Assembly (NCBI GenBank): GCA_036676985.1
Contig: JAKFBU010000023.1
Coordinates: 224,001-288,000, forward strand
DNA: 64,000 nt
Direction of reading: 5' to 3'
Source of the DNA: Candidatus Sericytochromatia bacterium
Lineage (GTDB): Bacteria; Cyanobacteriota; Sericytochromatia; S15B-MN24; UBA4093
Shown: positions 9,579-17,818 of the stretch, piece after piece
How positions within the stretch are numbered: the first letter of the stretch is position 1
Layout: each line of letters starts with the position of its first letter
Notes under the pieces: generated by a model
Seen by the model: the letters and a program-made list of their open reading frames with translations, nothing else
The model's database searches: none
Told to the model about the DNA's origin: nothing
Position numbers and translations under genes: made by a program

Positions 9579-11440
9579 TACTTCGACTCCTCTCTGGTCT
9601 TGCGGTCCTCGGTGTGCATCCCGACGGCCGAGGTCTGGGCCTCGACGGAGCCGGGCGCGGGCGTGGTCGCAGAGGCCTGCTTATCGACGTCGTACTTGCG
9701 GGGGCGCGGCTTGATGAGGCTCACGTCCACGTCCGCGTAAGTGATCTCGGGGCCGTTCGGCGTCCACTTGGCCATGGTGGTCTTGAGGAAGTTGGCGTCG
9801 TCGCGCTCCGGGAAATCGGGCTTGTAGTGGGCGCCGCGGCTCTCGTTGCGGAGGAGCGCGCCCTTGGTGATGACCTTGGCGAGCTCGATCATGTTCCAGA
9901 GCTGACGGGTGAAGGGCACCGCCTGGTTGGTCCAGGGACCGACGTCGTCGATGTTCACCTTCTTCCAGCGCTCGGAGAGCGTGTCGAGGTGCGCGAGGGT
10001 CTTCTCGAGCTTGTCGTTGTAGCGGACGACCGTGACGTTGTCCGTCATCCACTCGCCCAGCTCCTTGTGCAGGAGGTAGGGGTTCTCCGTGCCGCGCATG
10101 GCGAGGATCTGGTTGTACTTGTCCTGCTCACGCTTGACGGCCGCGTCCACCACCGAGCTCTTGACCTCGGTCTTGGCCGCGTTCTTCATGAACTTGGCGG
10201 AGGCGGGGCCCGCCACCATGCCGGCGTAGACCGTCGACAGGAGCGAGTTGGCGCCCAGGCGGTTGCCGCCATGGATCGAGTAGTCGGCCTCACCGACCGC
10301 GAACAGGCCGGGGATGTTGGTCATCTGGTCGTAGTCGACCCACAGGCCGCCCATGGTGTAGTGCATGCCGGGGAAGATCTTCATGGGGACGCGCTTGGGG
10401 TCGTCGCCGACGAACATCTCGTAGATCTCGAGCACACCGCCCAGCTTGCGCTCGAGCATGTGCGGGTCGAGGTGGCTGACGTCCAGGTAGACCTGGTTCT
10501 CGCCGTTGACGCCGAGCTTCATCTCGACGCAGACCTTGAAGATGGCGCGGGTCGCGATGTCGCGGGGCACCAGGTTGCCGTAGGCGGGATACATGGTCTC
10601 GAGGAAGTACCAGGGCTCGCCCTTGGGGGGACGCCCGTCGTTGCCGTCCGAAGGCACCCACACCCGGCCGCCCTCGCCGCGGATCGACTCGGACATGAGG
10701 CGCAGCTTGTCGCCGCCCGGGATCGACGTCGGGTGGACCTGGATGAACTCGCCGTTGGCGTAGGTGGCGCCCTGCTGGTAGACCGCGCCCTGCGCCGTAC
10801 CGGTGTTGATAAGCGAGTTGGTGCTCTTGCCGAAGATCATGCCGATGCCGCCGGTGGCGAGCACGGTCGCGCCCGCGGTGAAGGCCTTGATCTCCATGGT
10901 CTTCAGGTGCTGGCAGACGACGCCGCGGCAGATGCCCTCGTCGTCGAGGATGGCCGAGAGGAACTCCCAGCCCTCGTACTTGTTGACCTTGCCGGCCACT
11001 TCCCAGCGGCGCACCTGCTCGTCCAGGGCGTAGAGGAGCTGCTGACCGGTGGTCGCGCCCGCGAACGCCGTGCGGTGGTGCTTGGTGCCGCCGAAGCGAC
11101 GGAAGTCGAGGAGGCCTTCCGGGGTGCGGTTGAAGGGCACGCCCATCCGGTCGAAGAGGTAGATGATGCCGGGAGCGGCCTCGCACATGGCCTTGACGGG
11201 GGGCTGGTTGGCGAGGAAGTCACCGCCGTAGACGGTGTCGTCGAAGTGCTCCCAGGGGCTGTCGCCCTCGCCCTTGGTGTTGACCGCGCCGTTGATGCCG
11301 CCCTGCGCGCACACCGAGTGCGAGCGCTTGACCGGCACCAGGCTGAAGAGGTCGACGTTGACGCCGGCCTCGGCGGCCTTGATGACGGTCATCAGACCGG
11401 CAAGACCGCCGCCGACGACGATGATCCGATTAGCGTCCAT
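9578..11440 (-). CDS. sdhA: Succinate dehydrogenase flavoprotein
   Basis: GGGLAG, RSHSVCAQGG (covalent-FAD His), HYTMGG, HGGNRLGANSL, ESRGAH. Confidence 0.97.
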   Translation of the reverse strand: MDANRIIVVGGGLAGLMTVIKAAEAGVNVDLFSLVPVKRSHSVCAQGGINGAVNTKGEGDSPWEHFDDTVYGGDFLANQPPVKAMCEAAPGIIYLFDRMGVPFNRTPEGLLDFRRFGGTKHHRTAFAGATTGQQLLYALDEQVRRWEVAGKVNKYEGWEFLSAILDDEGICRGVVCQHLKTMEIKAFTAGATVLATGGIGMIFGKSTNSLINTGTAQGAVYQQGATYANGEFIQVHPTSIPGGDKLRLMSESIRGEGGRVWVPSDGNDGRPPKGEPWYFLETMYPAYGNLVPRDIATRAIFKVCVEMKLGVNGENQVYLDVSHLDPHMLERKLGGVLEIYEMFVGDDPKRVPMKIFPGMHYTMGGLWVDYDQMTNIPGLFAVGEADYSIHGGNRLGANSLLSTVYAGMVAGPASAKFMKNAAKTEVKSSVVDAAVKREQDKYNQILAMRGTENPYLLHKELGEWMTDNVTVVRYNDKLEKTLAHLDTLSERWKKVNIDDVGPWTNQAVPFTRQLWNMIELAKVITKGALLRNESRGAHYKPDFPERDDANFLKTTMAKWTPNGPEITYADVDVSLIKPRPRKYDVDKQASATTPAPGSVEAQTSAVGMHTEDRKTREESK

Positions 11441-12161
11441 TCGCTACCTCTTTCTGGATGACGAGCGTTGCAGCTTGATTCTGGTGGACGGCGCCGTGGC
11501 CGGCATCCGGGGTGACCGGGTTGCGGAAGGCGATGAGTGCCGAGATGCCGAGAGCCGAAACGCCGAGCCACACGACGATCATGGCGATCGACGACACCTG
11601 CTGGGCCTTCATGCTGACGGTGAAGCCCCAGTCGATGAGGAACTCCCACAGGCCGTTGGCAAAGTGGTAGGCGCTCGCAATGACGCCGATGGCGTAGAAG
11701 ACGGCCATGGCAGGCTCCTGAAGGTGCATCACGACCTTGCCGAAGCCCGAGCCTGCAAATCCATACTTCTCAATGGTATAGCCGATGGGCGTGCCCTGGA
11801 AGCGCATGAACCACGAATGGTAGGCAAGGAAGACCAGCATGAACAAGCCCGACAAGCGCTGAAGCGTGAAGTTCCAGTTGCGCGCGTAGGGGAACTTGAA
11901 GGGGTTGTTCTTGGCGATGAAGCCGACCCAGACGCCGAAGACCGAGTGGTAGATCAAAGGCAGGTAGATAAGGCCGAACTCCCAAACCCAAAGGTGGGGT
12001 AGCGTCTCCACGAGCTCGACTTTGGCCTCGAAGGCCGGCGCGCCCTGAATGGCATACGCGTTGATCATCAAGTGGACGATCATGTAGAAGCCGAGCGGCA
12101 TGACGCCCGTAAACTGGTGCAGCTTCCTTAGGAGGAAGTAATTCTTGTTCGACACGCCCAT
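11430..12161 (-). CDS. sdhC: Succinate dehydrogenase cytochrome b558 subunit
   Basis: RKLHQFTG, LQRLSG, YHFANGLW heme-ligand His pattern; 5 TM. Confidence 0.93.
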   Translation of the reverse strand: MGVSNKNYFLLRKLHQFTGVMPLGFYMIVHLMINAYAIQGAPAFEAKVELVETLPHLWVWEFGLIYLPLIYHSVFGVWVGFIAKNNPFKFPYARNWNFTLQRLSGLFMLVFLAYHSWFMRFQGTPIGYTIEKYGFAGSGFGKVVMHLQEPAMAVFYAIGVIASAYHFANGLWEFLIDWGFTVSMKAQQVSSIAMIVVWLGVSALGISALIAFRNPVTPDAGHGAVHQNQAATLVIQKEVANGR

Positions 12162-13890: not shown

Positions 13891-13916
13891 TTAATGGTTC
13901 GTGAAATCCATTTTAA
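13891..13916. promoter_or_regulatory. 11-bp phased TTAA/TGAA/TTAA boxes
   Basis: TTAA 13891, TGAA 13902, TTAA 13913; AAATCCATTTT shared with the S8 gene upstream region. Confidence 0.45.
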
Positions 13917-14008
13917 ACCCACGTTTGCTTTTTATCGTGCCGCCCCCCTCAAACTTGCGCATGAAAAAGAGGGGGCGACGCCCCCTCCGGATGTTCGCTC
14001 ATTCGCCC

Positions 14009-14512
14009 CTAGAGGATCTGCTCGACCTGCTCGACGCTGGGCAGCTGGTGGCCCTGGTAGCGGATGGCCCCCGTCTTGTCGATGAGGACGATGTTGGGAA
14101 TGCCCCGGACGCCGTATTGGTTGGAGACCGCCCCGTCGGTATCGAGGACCGTCGAGTAGGTGACGCCCTTTTCCTGGACGAAGCTCGTGACCTTGTCCGG
14201 GGACTCCTGGATGTTGACCCCGATCAGATCGACCGGCTTGCCCTGCAGGGACTGCGCGAGCTGGTTGGCGCGAGGAACCTCCTCACGACAGGCCCCTCAC
14301 CACGAGGCCCAGAAGATCAACACCTTGCTCCGCTTGTCGACGGTCGGATCGACCGTGACGTTCTGGCCGGTGGGCGTCGCGAGCGTGAAGGAGTGGGCCT
14401 GCTGGTCGCCGCCCGACTTGGCGCAGGCCACCAGGACCATCGCCAGTCCCAGGACCGTGCCCACGCGAGCGCGCATGGAGCGCCCGCGGCTCGAGAAATT
14501 CGCATCGTGCAT
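14009..14512 (-). CDS. TlpA/ResA-like thiol-disulfide oxidoreductase lipoprotein with UxxC (probable selenoprotein)
   Basis: AAGGAGG RBS; lipobox LVAC; LIFWASW-TGA-GAC-REEVP continues in frame through VLDTDGAVSNQYGVRGIPNIVLID to TAG at 14009. Confidence 0.85.
14269..14287 (-). promoter_or_regulatory. Bacterial SECIS-like hairpin
   Basis: CGTGAGGA-GGT-TCCTCGCG; apical loop starts 17 nt after the TGA at 14299-14297. Confidence 0.75.
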
Positions 14513-14704
14513 AGCAGCCTCCTTGTATGGGCCGCGCGCTGCCGCTTGCGCGCTTTTGGGGATCTTAGCACAAAACCCGGTCTCCCCCGACCTACTCTCC
14601 AAGGGATCGATCCTGTTTAGTTAGCGAAGTCTCGTTGTGATGTCCGCTTGCCTGAGACACTGAGCAGGCAAGGGGCAGCCGAGAGTTAACAGGAGGAAAC
14701 CTGC

Positions 14705-15415
14705 ATGCCTAGGCTTTACCGTTGGACCCTTGCCGGTACGCTTGCGCTCGCCCTGCCCGCGCTGGTGGGCTTCGAGGGCAACCCGCCCCAGGCCGTCGAG
14801 CCTCCCACCCCCACGCTCGAGGTCTTGCAGCAGGCGCTCTTGGCGCGGGACTACTTCTTCCCGTCCTCGGCGACCATGCGCGCCGTCTACAGCTTCAGCG
14901 AGTCGACGCAGGTGCCCTCGCAGGCGGCCCAGCAGATGTCCGGCACCTTGACCGTCACGGTCGTGAGCTACAGCCCGACCCAGGCGGTGGTCCGCACCAC
15001 CAGCACGTCGACCGGCGAAGGCGGACAGCCCAGCACCCAGACCGCCGACACCACGCTCACCATCGAAGCGGACGGCACCGTGGTCTCGAGCGCCACCTCC
15101 CAGCGCCGATCCAACGACATCTTCACGAGCGGCGGGGGCGTGGTGGCTCCGGCCTCGGGCTCCGAGATTCCCGAGATCCGCGCGCGCATGGTGGGCACCG
15201 AGACCGTCACCGTGCCCGCGGGCACCTACCAGACCGTCCGCCTGCAGGAGGGACTGGCCGCCCAGGGCGCTCCGCAGTATGACGTGTGGGTGGCCAGGGG
15301 CGTGGGCATCGTGCGCAAGCGCATGGACGCCACCTACCCCGTGCCGACCGGGCAGAACCAGACGGCGCAGGCTCGAACCACCTACGAGATGAGGCTCGAC
15401 AGCTTCACGCCCTAG
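14705..15415 (+). CDS. Exported beta-rich protein with ETVTVPAGTY motif (DUF3108/TapB-like)
   Basis: Signal peptide; VPAGT and WVARGVGIV motifs; AGGAGG RBS. Confidence 0.7.
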   Translation: MPRLYRWTLAGTLALALPALVGFEGNPPQAVEPPTPTLEVLQQALLARDYFFPSSATMRAVYSFSESTQVPSQAAQQMSGTLTVTVVSYSPTQAVVRTTSTSTGEGGQPSTQTADTTLTIEADGTVVSSATSQRRSNDIFTSGGGVVAPASGSEIPEIRARMVGTETVTVPAGTYQTVRLQEGLAAQGAPQYDVWVARGVGIVRKRMDATYPVPTGQNQTAQARTTYEMRLDSFTP

Positions 15416-15513
15416 GCGACCTCTCCATTCATACAACTTTATGACGTTTTGTGTATCATGTCGGAAGCTTGTCCTCCAAGCCCTCCCTCTACCGCCCAGA
15501 CAAGGAGAACGAC

Positions 15514-16251
15514 GTGACACGAAGCATGACGTGGCCCACGGCCGGCGGCTCCCTCTTGATGGGGGCCGCCCTGGTTCTAGCCGGTTGCCCCATGGACGGC
15601 CACCCCCCCTCTCACACTCCGACCACCGCGCCGGGTGACGTCTCCGCGACGGAGTACCAGCCGCGCGACTACTTCTATCCGGCGTCGGCGACCCAGCGCA
15701 ACGTCCTCCTCTTGACCTCGACGGTCGACCTCCCCGGGACGATGACGGACGAGGTGGCCACCGCGAGCCTCACCTCCGAGGTCACGGCCTATGGGGCCAA
15801 CACCGCCGAGGTGCGGTCGACCAACTCCTTCACCCTGCCGGGCACCGGCGGCTCGAGCCCCGTGGCTTCCAGCTCGGTCTCGACGGCCTCCTTCCGCGTC
15901 GAGGCCGACGGGACGGTCTTGGTCACCATGGACGAGGGCATCGAGCGCTACCCGCGGGGCGTGTTCACCAGTGCCGGAGCGATCATCGGGGGCCAGGGCG
16001 GCGGAGTCATCCGCATGTCGCTCGAAGGCGGACCGGAGGCGGTCCAGGTCCCGGCCGGGCCGTTCAGCGCCCTGCGCTTCACCATCCGGACCATCGACGG
16101 CGACTACCGGTCCTGGTATGCCCGCCAGGTGGGCTCCGTGCGCACGGACAGCACGGGCACCTTCTCGGTGGTGGTCGGCACGCCGCCCGCGACCTCGAGT
16201 GCGGTGGCGACCGTGAGCACCCGCGTCGAGCTCGTCTCGCGCACGCCGTAA
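15514..16251 (+). CDS. Lipoprotein paralog of the upstream gene (VPAG motif)
   Basis: Lipobox LAGC; DYFYPASATQR, EADGTV, VQVPAGPF, WYARQVG align with the 14705 protein. Confidence 0.7.
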   Translation: MTRSMTWPTAGGSLLMGAALVLAGCPMDGHPPSHTPTTAPGDVSATEYQPRDYFYPASATQRNVLLLTSTVDLPGTMTDEVATASLTSEVTAYGANTAEVRSTNSFTLPGTGGSSPVASSSVSTASFRVEADGTVLVTMDEGIERYPRGVFTSAGAIIGGQGGGVIRMSLEGGPEAVQVPAGPFSALRFTIRTIDGDYRSWYARQVGSVRTDSTGTFSVVVGTPPATSSAVATVSTRVELVSRTP

Positions 16252-17173: not shown

Positions 17174-17818
17174 CTACTTGGCGCCGAGCGCGGCGACCAC
17201 CATGTCGATGTAGAGGTCTTCGAACTCGCCCTGGCTGAGCTTGCCGTCGCCCGTCTTGTCCGCTCCCGCGTACAGCTCGTCGGTGACCGTCACGAGCGTG
17301 GTCGTGATGTTGAGCGTCGGGTACCGGAAGCCCATGCCCACCTTGGCCACCCGCGCATCCGCGAGCTCCTCGCGGGTCAAGAAGCCGTCGCCCCGGCTGA
17401 ACATGCCGCCCGTGGGCAGATCGAGCTTGGTGAACGCCGTGCCGAGGTAGTCGCGCATGCGCACGAAGAACTTGTCCTCGGAGTCGGCCCCGGTGAAGAA
17501 GCCCCCCGCCGTGGCGAACTGCACGAACTGCGCCTCGGAGATCTTGCCGTCGGCGTTGCGATCGAGCTTGGTGAAGAGGTTGAGGGGGATGGTGGGGCCG
17601 GCCTCGTACTCGTCGATGTGGCCGTCGTGGTTGGCGTCGAGGTTGCCGAAGATGGCCTTGTGGATACGGCCGAAGCCGGCCTTGAGGGCGGCCGTCGCGC
17701 TCGCGGACACCTTGGTCGACGAAGCGGACGTGGTGCCGGCGGTGGGCACGCCGCAGCCCGCGAGGCCAAGGAGCGCCAGGCCCAGGGCCGCGCTCACCAG
17801 TCGGTTGTTATGAATCAT
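17174..17818 (-). CDS. EF-hand calcium-binding lipoprotein
   Basis: Lipobox LAGC; DANHDGHIDEYE, DRNADGKISEAQ, DKTGDGKLSQGE loops. Confidence 0.85.
   Translation of the reverse strand: MIHNNRLVSAALGLALLGLAGCGVPTAGTTSASSTKVSASATAALKAGFGRIHKAIFGNLDANHDGHIDEYEAGPTIPLNLFTKLDRNADGKISEAQFVQFATAGGFFTGADSEDKFFVRMRDYLGTAFTKLDLPTGGMFSRGDGFLTREELADARVAKVGMGFRYPTLNITTTLVTVTDELYAGADKTGDGKLSQGEFEDLYIDMVVAALGAK

Follow-up and report, generated by a model that had tools for sequence, protein, structure and literature searches.

The DNA under study (hereafter the window, the whole stretch of 64,000 nucleotides from contig JAKFBU010000023.1 of a Candidatus Sericytochromatia bacterium, phylum Cyanobacteriota) carries on its minus strand, at 14009..14512, a gene for an exported thioredoxin-fold protein of the TlpA/ResA/CcmG type, whose frame of 167 codons plus a TAG is interrupted by a single TGA. 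Judging from the sequences of the gene, of its relatives and of the genome, this TGA very probably encodes the active-site selenocysteine (Sec) of a thiol-disulfide oxidoreductase, at the position where related enzymes have the first Cys of their W-C-x-x-C motif. The explanation as a whole, to which this high probability applies, also implies that the gene would be intact and monocistronic and that public gene callers cut it short at the TGA.

The gene and its in-frame TGA

Read on the minus strand, the frame starts with an ATG at 14512, opens MHDANFSSRGRSMRARVGTVLGLAMVLVAC...KVLIFWASW and then meets the TGA (14299-14297), past which it continues G-A-C-R-E-E-V-P... for 95 further codons to the TAG (14011-14009). 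Translation and alignment with homologues place the TGA (14297..14299) at residue 72, the predicted nucleophilic position of a W-U-G-A-C redox motif, and a TGT (14288..14290) at Cys75, the predicted resolving residue of this UxxC motif, whose column is invariant in the alignment. A Shine-Dalgarno sequence, AAGGAGG (14518..14524), stands 5 nt before the ATG, and an intrinsic-terminator-like hairpin of 9 pairs followed by TTTTCAT (13968..13988) lies 20 nt past the TAG, that is, after the full-length frame and not after the TGA. Residues 1-30 (14423..14512) have the makings of an N-terminal export signal, with an Arg-rich n-region, a hydrophobic core and a lipobox (L27-V28-A29-C30), and Pro139 of a G-I-P tripeptide (14096..14098), which aligns with the GVP of 3kcm and the GMP of 3gl3, would belong to the cis-Pro loop of the thioredoxin fold.

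Codon usage does not change across the TGA, the G+C content of third codon positions (GC3) in this frame being 0.93 upstream and 0.91 downstream of it, against 0.36-0.67 in the other two frames. The genome to which the window belongs (G000; 4.68 Mb in 79 contigs, 67.3% G+C) has T at the end of 4.7% of its codons, as counted in 1848 long open reading frames (ORFs), with TGT making up 8.6% of Cys, CGT 6.3% of Arg, GTT 2.5% of Val and CCT 4.6% of Pro codons. The gene has 11 T-ending codons and four of them (TGT, CGT, GTT and CCT) fall within codons 75-80, where the T of GTT and that of CCT pair with A's in the stem of the hairpin described below, the T of CGT forms a G-U pair and the T of TGT lies outside the stem. 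An earlier note on this DNA had proposed, from its letters, a TGA at the first Cys of a CxxC motif in a frame open for 95 codons more, a strong ribosome-binding site, GIP as the cis-Pro loop and atypical T-ending codons near a hairpin, all of which the present analysis bears out.

Conservation of the TGA among orthologues

A search of 41 related genomes returned ten best matches, in 10 genomes belonging to two taxonomic families, that are 34-66% identical and contain exactly one in-frame TGA each. This TGA falls in the same column in all ten, within a shared F[WF][AT]SW-U-x-x-C-R, and so none of these closest relatives has a Cys there; the weaker matches in the same genomes, paralogues scoring at most 74 bits, are devoid of in-frame TGA. 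Cys occupies the U72 position in all seven aligned Cys homologues and in the relatives of solved structure.

Downstream of the TGA, synonymous codon differences outnumber non-synonymous ones in each of the pairs compared (14 against 1 in 95 codons for G003 and G006, 17 against 6 in 56 codons for G003 and G009, 19 against 14 in 95 codons for G019 and G025), a pattern by which this region is under purifying selection. The TGA form also tends to co-occur with selA. In the class sample, selA was found in 22 of the 41 genomes, among them nine of the ten carriers of the TGA form, while 13 selA-positive genomes are without that form; of the 19 genomes where selA was not found, G006 alone has the TGA form and the remaining 18 lack it.

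When 1.84 billion representatives were searched exhaustively with HMMER, 77,427 relatives came up at E ≤ 0.001, the best full-length single-domain ones being Cys forms (WCPxC) with 38-45% identity, several of which have lipoboxes. Homologues of this kind point to the usual Sec/Cys pairing, and no Cys orthologue above 45% identity was found in this search. The sole close match in the public catalogue is a product of 64 residues, 82% identical, that ends in ...FWASW, precisely where the TGA would follow, and it is therefore best seen as the truncated gene call of a relative. A word-based protein search with the recoded protein listed 41 candidates, none of them at E ≤ 1e-10, a result limited by word sharing and by the fact that gene callers truncate Sec forms.

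Independent assemblies agree on the codon: contigs of three further studies (X5, X7 and X8) bridge 14297-14299, with no difference there among those listed. A fourth study (X9) has no contig with 31 letters on both sides of the TGA, and one of its contigs skips 14317-14415 at a depth of 3.2. In environmental contigs of X5 and X9, position 14288 reads G instead of A on the plus strand, a synonymous change of the Cys75 codon from TGT to TGC that lies just 5' of the hairpin stem.

A conserved SECIS-like hairpin

The UGA is followed, after a spacer of 9 nt, by a hairpin (14269..14287, minus strand) that resembles a bacterial Sec insertion sequence (SECIS). Its 5' arm CGTGAGGA (14287-14280), GGT loop (14279-14277) and 3' arm TCCTCGCG (14276-14269) correspond in RNA to CGUGAGGA-GGU-UCCUCGCG, an 8-bp stem whose loop starts 17 nt past the UGA, as the earlier note had described. 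The criterion applied by bSECISearch is a stem-loop just 3' of the UGA with a G in the apical loop 16-37 nt from it. This is what all ten orthologues have, each with an 8-bp hairpin and a G-first 3-nt loop (GGU, GGC or GUC) that starts 17 nt past the UGA, and the element is a putative SelB site.

In a 75-column alignment of the ten orthologues, all 80 pair cells of the 8-bp stem hold standard pairs, and compensatory changes occur at two stem pairs, one split 5:5 between A-U and C-G and the other 4:4:2 between C-G, U-A and U-G. None of 500 shuffles reached the observed pairing or covariation score, and when the partner is slid by 1-3 columns pairing falls to 19-65%. As a control, 90 Cys homologues were examined, of which ten are paralogues from the same class and 80 are loci from distant public genomes, obtained by a contig search with Cys-at-Sec-site patterns that retrieved distant Cys homologues only. 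A stem of at least 7 bp in the SECIS window is present in three of these 90 and the same geometry in a single one (L096), as opposed to all ten Sec orthologues, and on average local folding is stronger in the Sec forms (-14.3 kcal/mol) than in the Cys forms (-6.2 kcal/mol). The minimum-energy fold contains the conserved hairpin in nine of the ten sequences, and a hairpin of exactly this type occurs once in the 4.68-Mb genome.

Four distant Cys homologues that read C-R-x-E-I-P (L095, L096, L108 and L112) also form a weak stem, 4-8 bp long and capped by a 3-nt loop, with the same offset of 17 nt. It seems that the codons spelling C-R-x-E-x-P are in themselves partly self-complementary, which could have made it easier for a SECIS to evolve here.

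Selenocysteine machinery and other selenoproteins of the genome

That this lineage uses Sec recoding, as the earlier note had supposed, is well supported. The genome has a tRNA-Sec (75.2 bits, tca anticodon, called tRNA-SeC by ARAGORN), selA (627 bits), selB (381 bits, covering positions 1-579 of the 581 in the model) and selD (387 bits; C26:280471-281394, minus strand), all above curated cut-offs. The first three lie within 10 kb of each other on contig C62, and selD has one in-frame TGA of its own, in the motif SGUASK.

A de novo scan for TGA read-through yielded 91 candidates, nine of which were taken further by motif; seven of these belong to known selenoprotein families. They encode FdhA (CARTUH), two rhodanese proteins (YCTUPNE), two AhpD-like/CMD proteins (CNYU and CPFU), a peroxiredoxin (TPGUT) and a Thioredoxin_7 protein (LPGUAGC). 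All seven are Pfam-confirmed and have their TGA at the redox position (C27:48025, C38:152168 and C41:21565 on the plus strand; C7:16946, C19:84536, C41:137981 and C77:83952 on the minus strand). The remaining two candidates, C1:101944 and C63:40291, both with a 'CUS' motif, were dropped for want of a Pfam match. Each of the seven genes has a G-containing hairpin loop 17-33 nt past its UGA, and in the Thioredoxin_7 gene the SECIS geometry is that of the gene studied here, with a 9-nt spacer, an 8-bp stem and a GGA loop. Counting SelD and the studied gene, G000 thus encodes at least nine selenoproteins, which is above the figure of six given as the threshold for a 'selenoprotein-rich' organism in PMC5029168.

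TGA has not been reassigned. A genome-wide change of meaning is ruled out since TGA terminates 456 of the 1848 long ORFs of G000 (TAG 928, TAA 464) and, in four of the seven orthologues whose 3' end is on the contig, ends the selenoprotein gene itself. In these four (L022, L023, L025 and L027, the orthologues in G017, G011, G019 and G025), one and the same mRNA would carry a UGA read as Sec, next to the hairpin, and another serving as terminator. TAG is the commonest stop codon of G000 despite a G+C content of 67.3%, which seems unusual at such a composition.

Fold and family

Two Pfam families match residues 37-156 and span the TGA, Redoxin (PF08534; 82.8 bits for a cut-off of 26.6, E 2.7e-23) and AhpC-TSA (PF00578; 77.3 bits for a cut-off of 26, E 1.2e-21), and the nearest sequences of known structure are a thioredoxin-family protein of Geobacter (3kcm, 4.7e-17), DsbE of Chlorobium (3gl3) and ResA of B. 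subtilis. An AlphaFold model built from a 17-sequence alignment has a mean predicted local distance difference test score of 87.5, with averages of 92-98 for successive blocks of 10 residues from residue 41 onwards (41-167), and a helix of low confidence at residues 12-28. It superposes on ResA (1st9) with a template modelling score of 0.87-0.88 and a root-mean-square deviation of 1.9 Å, and in a structure search CcmG, StoA, DsbF and the pneumococcal lipoprotein thioredoxin Etrx2 superpose on it as well, ResA, CcmG and Etrx2 being among the top-ranked matches with a probability of 1.00. F67, W71, U/C72, C75 and P80 are invariant columns of the alignment, and Pro139 is kept in all 15 sequences that reach its column.

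The protein scores below the equivalog cut-offs of ResA (NF002854, 72.3 vs 170), DsbE/CcmG (TIGR00385, 67.4 vs 123.15) and TlpA (NF047696, 47.1 vs 230), and below those of two NCBIfam selenoprotein models, NF041054 (WAxxUGC, 49.3 vs 300) and NF053656 (TUGYCR, 17.5 vs 100), the motif here being UGAC. Its kinship with all of these is thus at the level of the family, and it belongs to none of them. ResA, CcmG and TlpA-type proteins are extracytoplasmic reductases fed by CcdA or DsbD. By analogy with them, the product would be an extracytoplasmic thiol-disulfide reductase, with Sec72 as the attacking and Cys75 as the resolving residue.

Export and lipid anchoring

A hydrophobic N-terminus is present in all ten orthologues, and its details vary. 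Three have a lipobox (LVAC in G000 and G001, LGAC in G017), three (G003, G006 and G009) have a signal ending in A-x-A-Q that looks cleavable, and four (G011, G013, G019 and G025) have a Cys-free hydrophobic anchor. These termini suggest that an extracytoplasmic location is conserved across the orthologues and that lipid anchoring is not. The claim of an LVAC lipobox made in the earlier note therefore stands for the gene in the window, at L27-C30, and does not extend to the group.

In G000 itself the protein is probably lipid-anchored. It is unlikely that it is a real selenoprotein held by an uncleaved signal or soluble in the periplasm, with a fortuitous LVAC, an arrangement to which the seven orthologues that have an A-x-A-like site (three) or a Cys-free anchor (four) in place of a lipobox lend some weight. 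However, L-V-A-C follows a typical n- and h-region in both G000 and G001, as does L-G-A-C in G017. The genome also possesses lgt and two lspA genes, lipoboxes recur in several of the closest Cys homologues, and the title given to one structural neighbour, Etrx2 of S. pneumoniae, is that of an exposed lipoprotein thioredoxin.

Proposed mechanism

The machinery of the genome and the comparative data outline a model in which SelB-GTP bearing Sec-tRNA(Sec) would be recruited to UGA72 by the 8-bp GGU-loop hairpin 9 nt downstream, so that Sec would be inserted and translation would not terminate. The preprotein would leave the cytoplasm via the Sec translocon and, as its lipobox suggests, be lipidated on Cys30 by the action of Lgt and LspA. 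Outside the cytoplasm, the selenolate of U72 may attack a substrate disulfide (or sulfenate) to give a selenenyl-sulfide that Cys75 would resolve, and the resulting U72-C75 bond would be re-reduced by a membrane electron carrier of the CcdA/DsbD type, for which the single DsbD_TM gene of the genome (C41:141400-142050) is a candidate.

Weighing the interpretation

A number of observations weigh against parts of this interpretation. As regards the hairpin, the 66-nt stretch of the window is itself no more stable than shuffles of it (z = -0.41, 71 of 200 folding as well), and its minimum-energy fold is an alternative in which the 3' arm pairs with an upstream GUGAGG copy that includes the UGA; support for the hairpin is thus comparative, not thermodynamic. 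Rfam gave no match to 13900-14650 even when E values up to 10 were allowed. Covariation is seen at two of the eight pairs, the other six being invariant among sequences that, as kin, are not independent, and the A-U/C-G switch tracks the two taxonomic families and may therefore be a single event. The stem also overlaps a conserved protein motif, C-R-x-E-x-P, which by itself conserves nucleotides, a concern that the Cys-homologue control answers in part. As regards the gene, G006 carries the TGA form and no selA was found in its 81%-complete genome, and the flanking genes differ by family, with an EF-hand protein gene and sdhC in f1 and DUF885 and CrtC-lipocalin genes in f3. As regards the protein, only three of the ten orthologues have a lipobox, and its scores, too low for the curated ResA, DsbE and TlpA cut-offs and for those of the NCBIfam UGC and TUGYCR models, leave several candidate roles, namely cytochrome c maturation, copper-centre assembly, Msr supply and peroxide defence.

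A rival reading is that the UGA is read through without Sec, by a near-cognate Trp or Cys tRNA or as programmed read-through aided by the hairpin, and downstream hairpins can indeed stimulate stop-codon read-through in general. This is nevertheless highly improbable. The position of the UGA is precisely that of the nucleophilic Cys in the CxxC motif, where Sec is found in the known selenoproteins tabulated in PMC13188914 and PMC2398784, and a Trp or Gly at position 72 would be expected to kill a CxxC enzyme. The TGA form goes with selA in nine of its ten carriers and is found in one of the 19 selA-less genomes, and classic Sec sites occur in FdhA, SelD and the peroxiredoxin of this genome. That the gene is a pseudogene or an assembly error in which TGT or TGC became TGA, so that at most a fragment of 71 residues is made, is in keeping with gene callers stopping at the TGA and with the 64-residue catalogue product, yet it is scarcely credible given the same TGA in 10 genomes that are 34-66% identical and in bridging contigs from three further studies, the purifying selection and GC3 of 0.91 downstream, the terminator after the full-length frame and the Sec machinery of the genome.

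Genomic neighbourhood

The selenoprotein gene has two DUF3108-like ORFs on one side and a gene for an M14 carboxypeptidase lipoprotein on the other; sdhC/sdhA and an EF-hand lipoprotein gene are more distant. The two ORFs are on the plus strand, divergent from the selenoprotein gene. The nearer one (14705-15412) has weak DUF3108 matches of 20-21 bits, under the Pfam cut-offs, and the other (15451-16248) has no Pfam match, a protein atlas giving 'hypothetical' and one DUF3108-like lead at 0.88. The EF-hand protein and sdhC genes (17174-17818 and 11430-12161 in the window, both on the minus strand) are the direct flanks of the selenoprotein gene in G003 (locus L024, 729-1409 and 2044-2772, both on the plus strand), and the order EF-hand, selenoprotein gene, sdhC in that genome supports orthology by synteny; in the window, these flanks are set apart from the selenoprotein gene by the insertion of the M14 carboxypeptidase gene, an HD-domain gene and the two DUF3108-like ORFs. 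Local synteny is thus conserved within this family. In the second family (f3), DUF885 flanks three of the four loci checked and a CrtC-lipocalin gene two of the four. The idea of an operon partner was rejected, no redox partner being conserved beside the gene in the window or at the relatives' loci, and at the loci examined it was not linked to any gene for cytochrome c maturation, Sco or Msr.

Comparison with known systems

Genome surveys have recorded Sec in the UxxC motif of TlpA/Prx-like redoxins for some twenty years (since 2004-2008), and the gene is a member of this already known class of bacterial selenoproteins. The table of a 2026 review (PMC13188914) has a 'Prx-like thiol:disulfide oxidoreductase' (PF00578; UxxC, UxxU), credited to Kryukov & Gladyshev 2004, and a 'Redoxin family protein' (PF08534; UxxC) among prokaryotic selenoproteins. 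Table 2 of the GOS survey (PMC2398784) has 225 'Prx-like 1' (pfam00578, UxxC) and 68 'Prx-like 3' (pfam08534, UxxC) proteins along with thousands of Cys homologues, and a table in PMC5029168 gives figures of 28 and 32 for the 'Prx-like thiol:disulfide oxidoreductase'. The statement in the earlier note that UxxC redoxins are known thus agrees with the family tables of the first two sources. As these tables define them, the Prx-like and Redoxin families share with the studied gene a PF00578 or PF08534 domain, a UxxC motif with Sec first and a large excess of Cys homologues over Sec forms, and the gene falls within the published definition as judged by Pfam domain and motif. It differs from these families in that its group was found in one order only and that even its top full-length Cys relatives do not exceed 45% identity. 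A signal peptide or lipobox is not mentioned for these families in the text of PMC13188914, PMC2398784 or PMC5029168, the supplements of which may bear on the point; a search for 'periplasmic selenoprotein' found no literature, and one for selenocysteine with lipobox gave nothing relevant by title.

ResA of B. subtilis, CcmG/DsbE, TlpA, StoA and the Etrx thioredoxins share with the protein their fold, a W-x-x-x-C after the first β-strand, the cis-Pro loop and N-terminal membrane tethering. However, they are Cys enzymes, whereas the studied protein would have Sec at the nucleophilic position. NF041054 (ResA-like, WAxxUGC), NF053656 (TUGYCR redoxin) and the 'UGC-containing TlpA family' (cd02966) describe likewise thioredoxin-fold, TlpA-like selenoproteins, but these NCBIfam models have UGC, and a protein with W-U-G-A-C (UxxC) is not a member. 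The hairpin has in common with the SECIS of E. coli fdhF its place within the coding sequence directly 3' of the UGA, a G (and a U) in the apical loop and a fixed distance, and differs from it in a perfect 8-bp stem, a 3-nt loop and the lack of a bulged U. Being compact (9-nt spacer, 8-bp stem, G-first triloop) and accompanied by natural compensatory variants, it is a possible test case for SECIS predictors.

Selenocysteine within the Cyanobacteriota

In a sample of 401 genomes of the phylum, selA is present in 23, all of them in the class of the window (23 of 47 vs none of 354 elsewhere). The photosystem reaction centre family PF00124 was matched in 50 of 151 genomes of the phylum and not once in 46 from this class, which is therefore non-photosynthetic; among the named control genomes it matched in Synechococcus only. 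Sec decoding thus appears to be confined, within the Cyanobacteriota sampled, to a non-photosynthetic class. A 2005 survey (PMC1273633) records cyanobacteria that have selD and ybbB and are without Sec decoding, and no literature joining Sericytochromatia with selenocysteine was found. The orthologous group of the studied gene is narrower still. It was found only in the order of the window, where 10 of 27 genomes have it as opposed to none of about 374 sampled in the rest of the phylum, and at E ≤ 1e-20 it is recovered in nine of the 401 phylum genomes.

The immediate consequence concerns annotation. Public gene calls end at the TGA and give a 64-residue product, an error that makes a predicted exported redox enzyme, and with it a putative dependence of the envelope on selenium, invisible in catalogues for this lineage. 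On its own the gene is of modest interest, a further sign of how rich in selenoproteins this non-photosynthetic class of Cyanobacteriota is, and the most novel angle that can be defended is that of the lineage, a Sec-decoding class of this kind with an order-specific envelope selenoenzyme. A broader proposal, plausible if somewhat short of probable, is that the gene represents an orthologous group of TlpA-like reductases, tethered to the surface, that is Sec-only and confined to one order within this class, in which case Sec use may be an unreported trait separating basal lineages from the oxygenic cyanobacteria, and the envelope selenoenzyme would be part of that trait.

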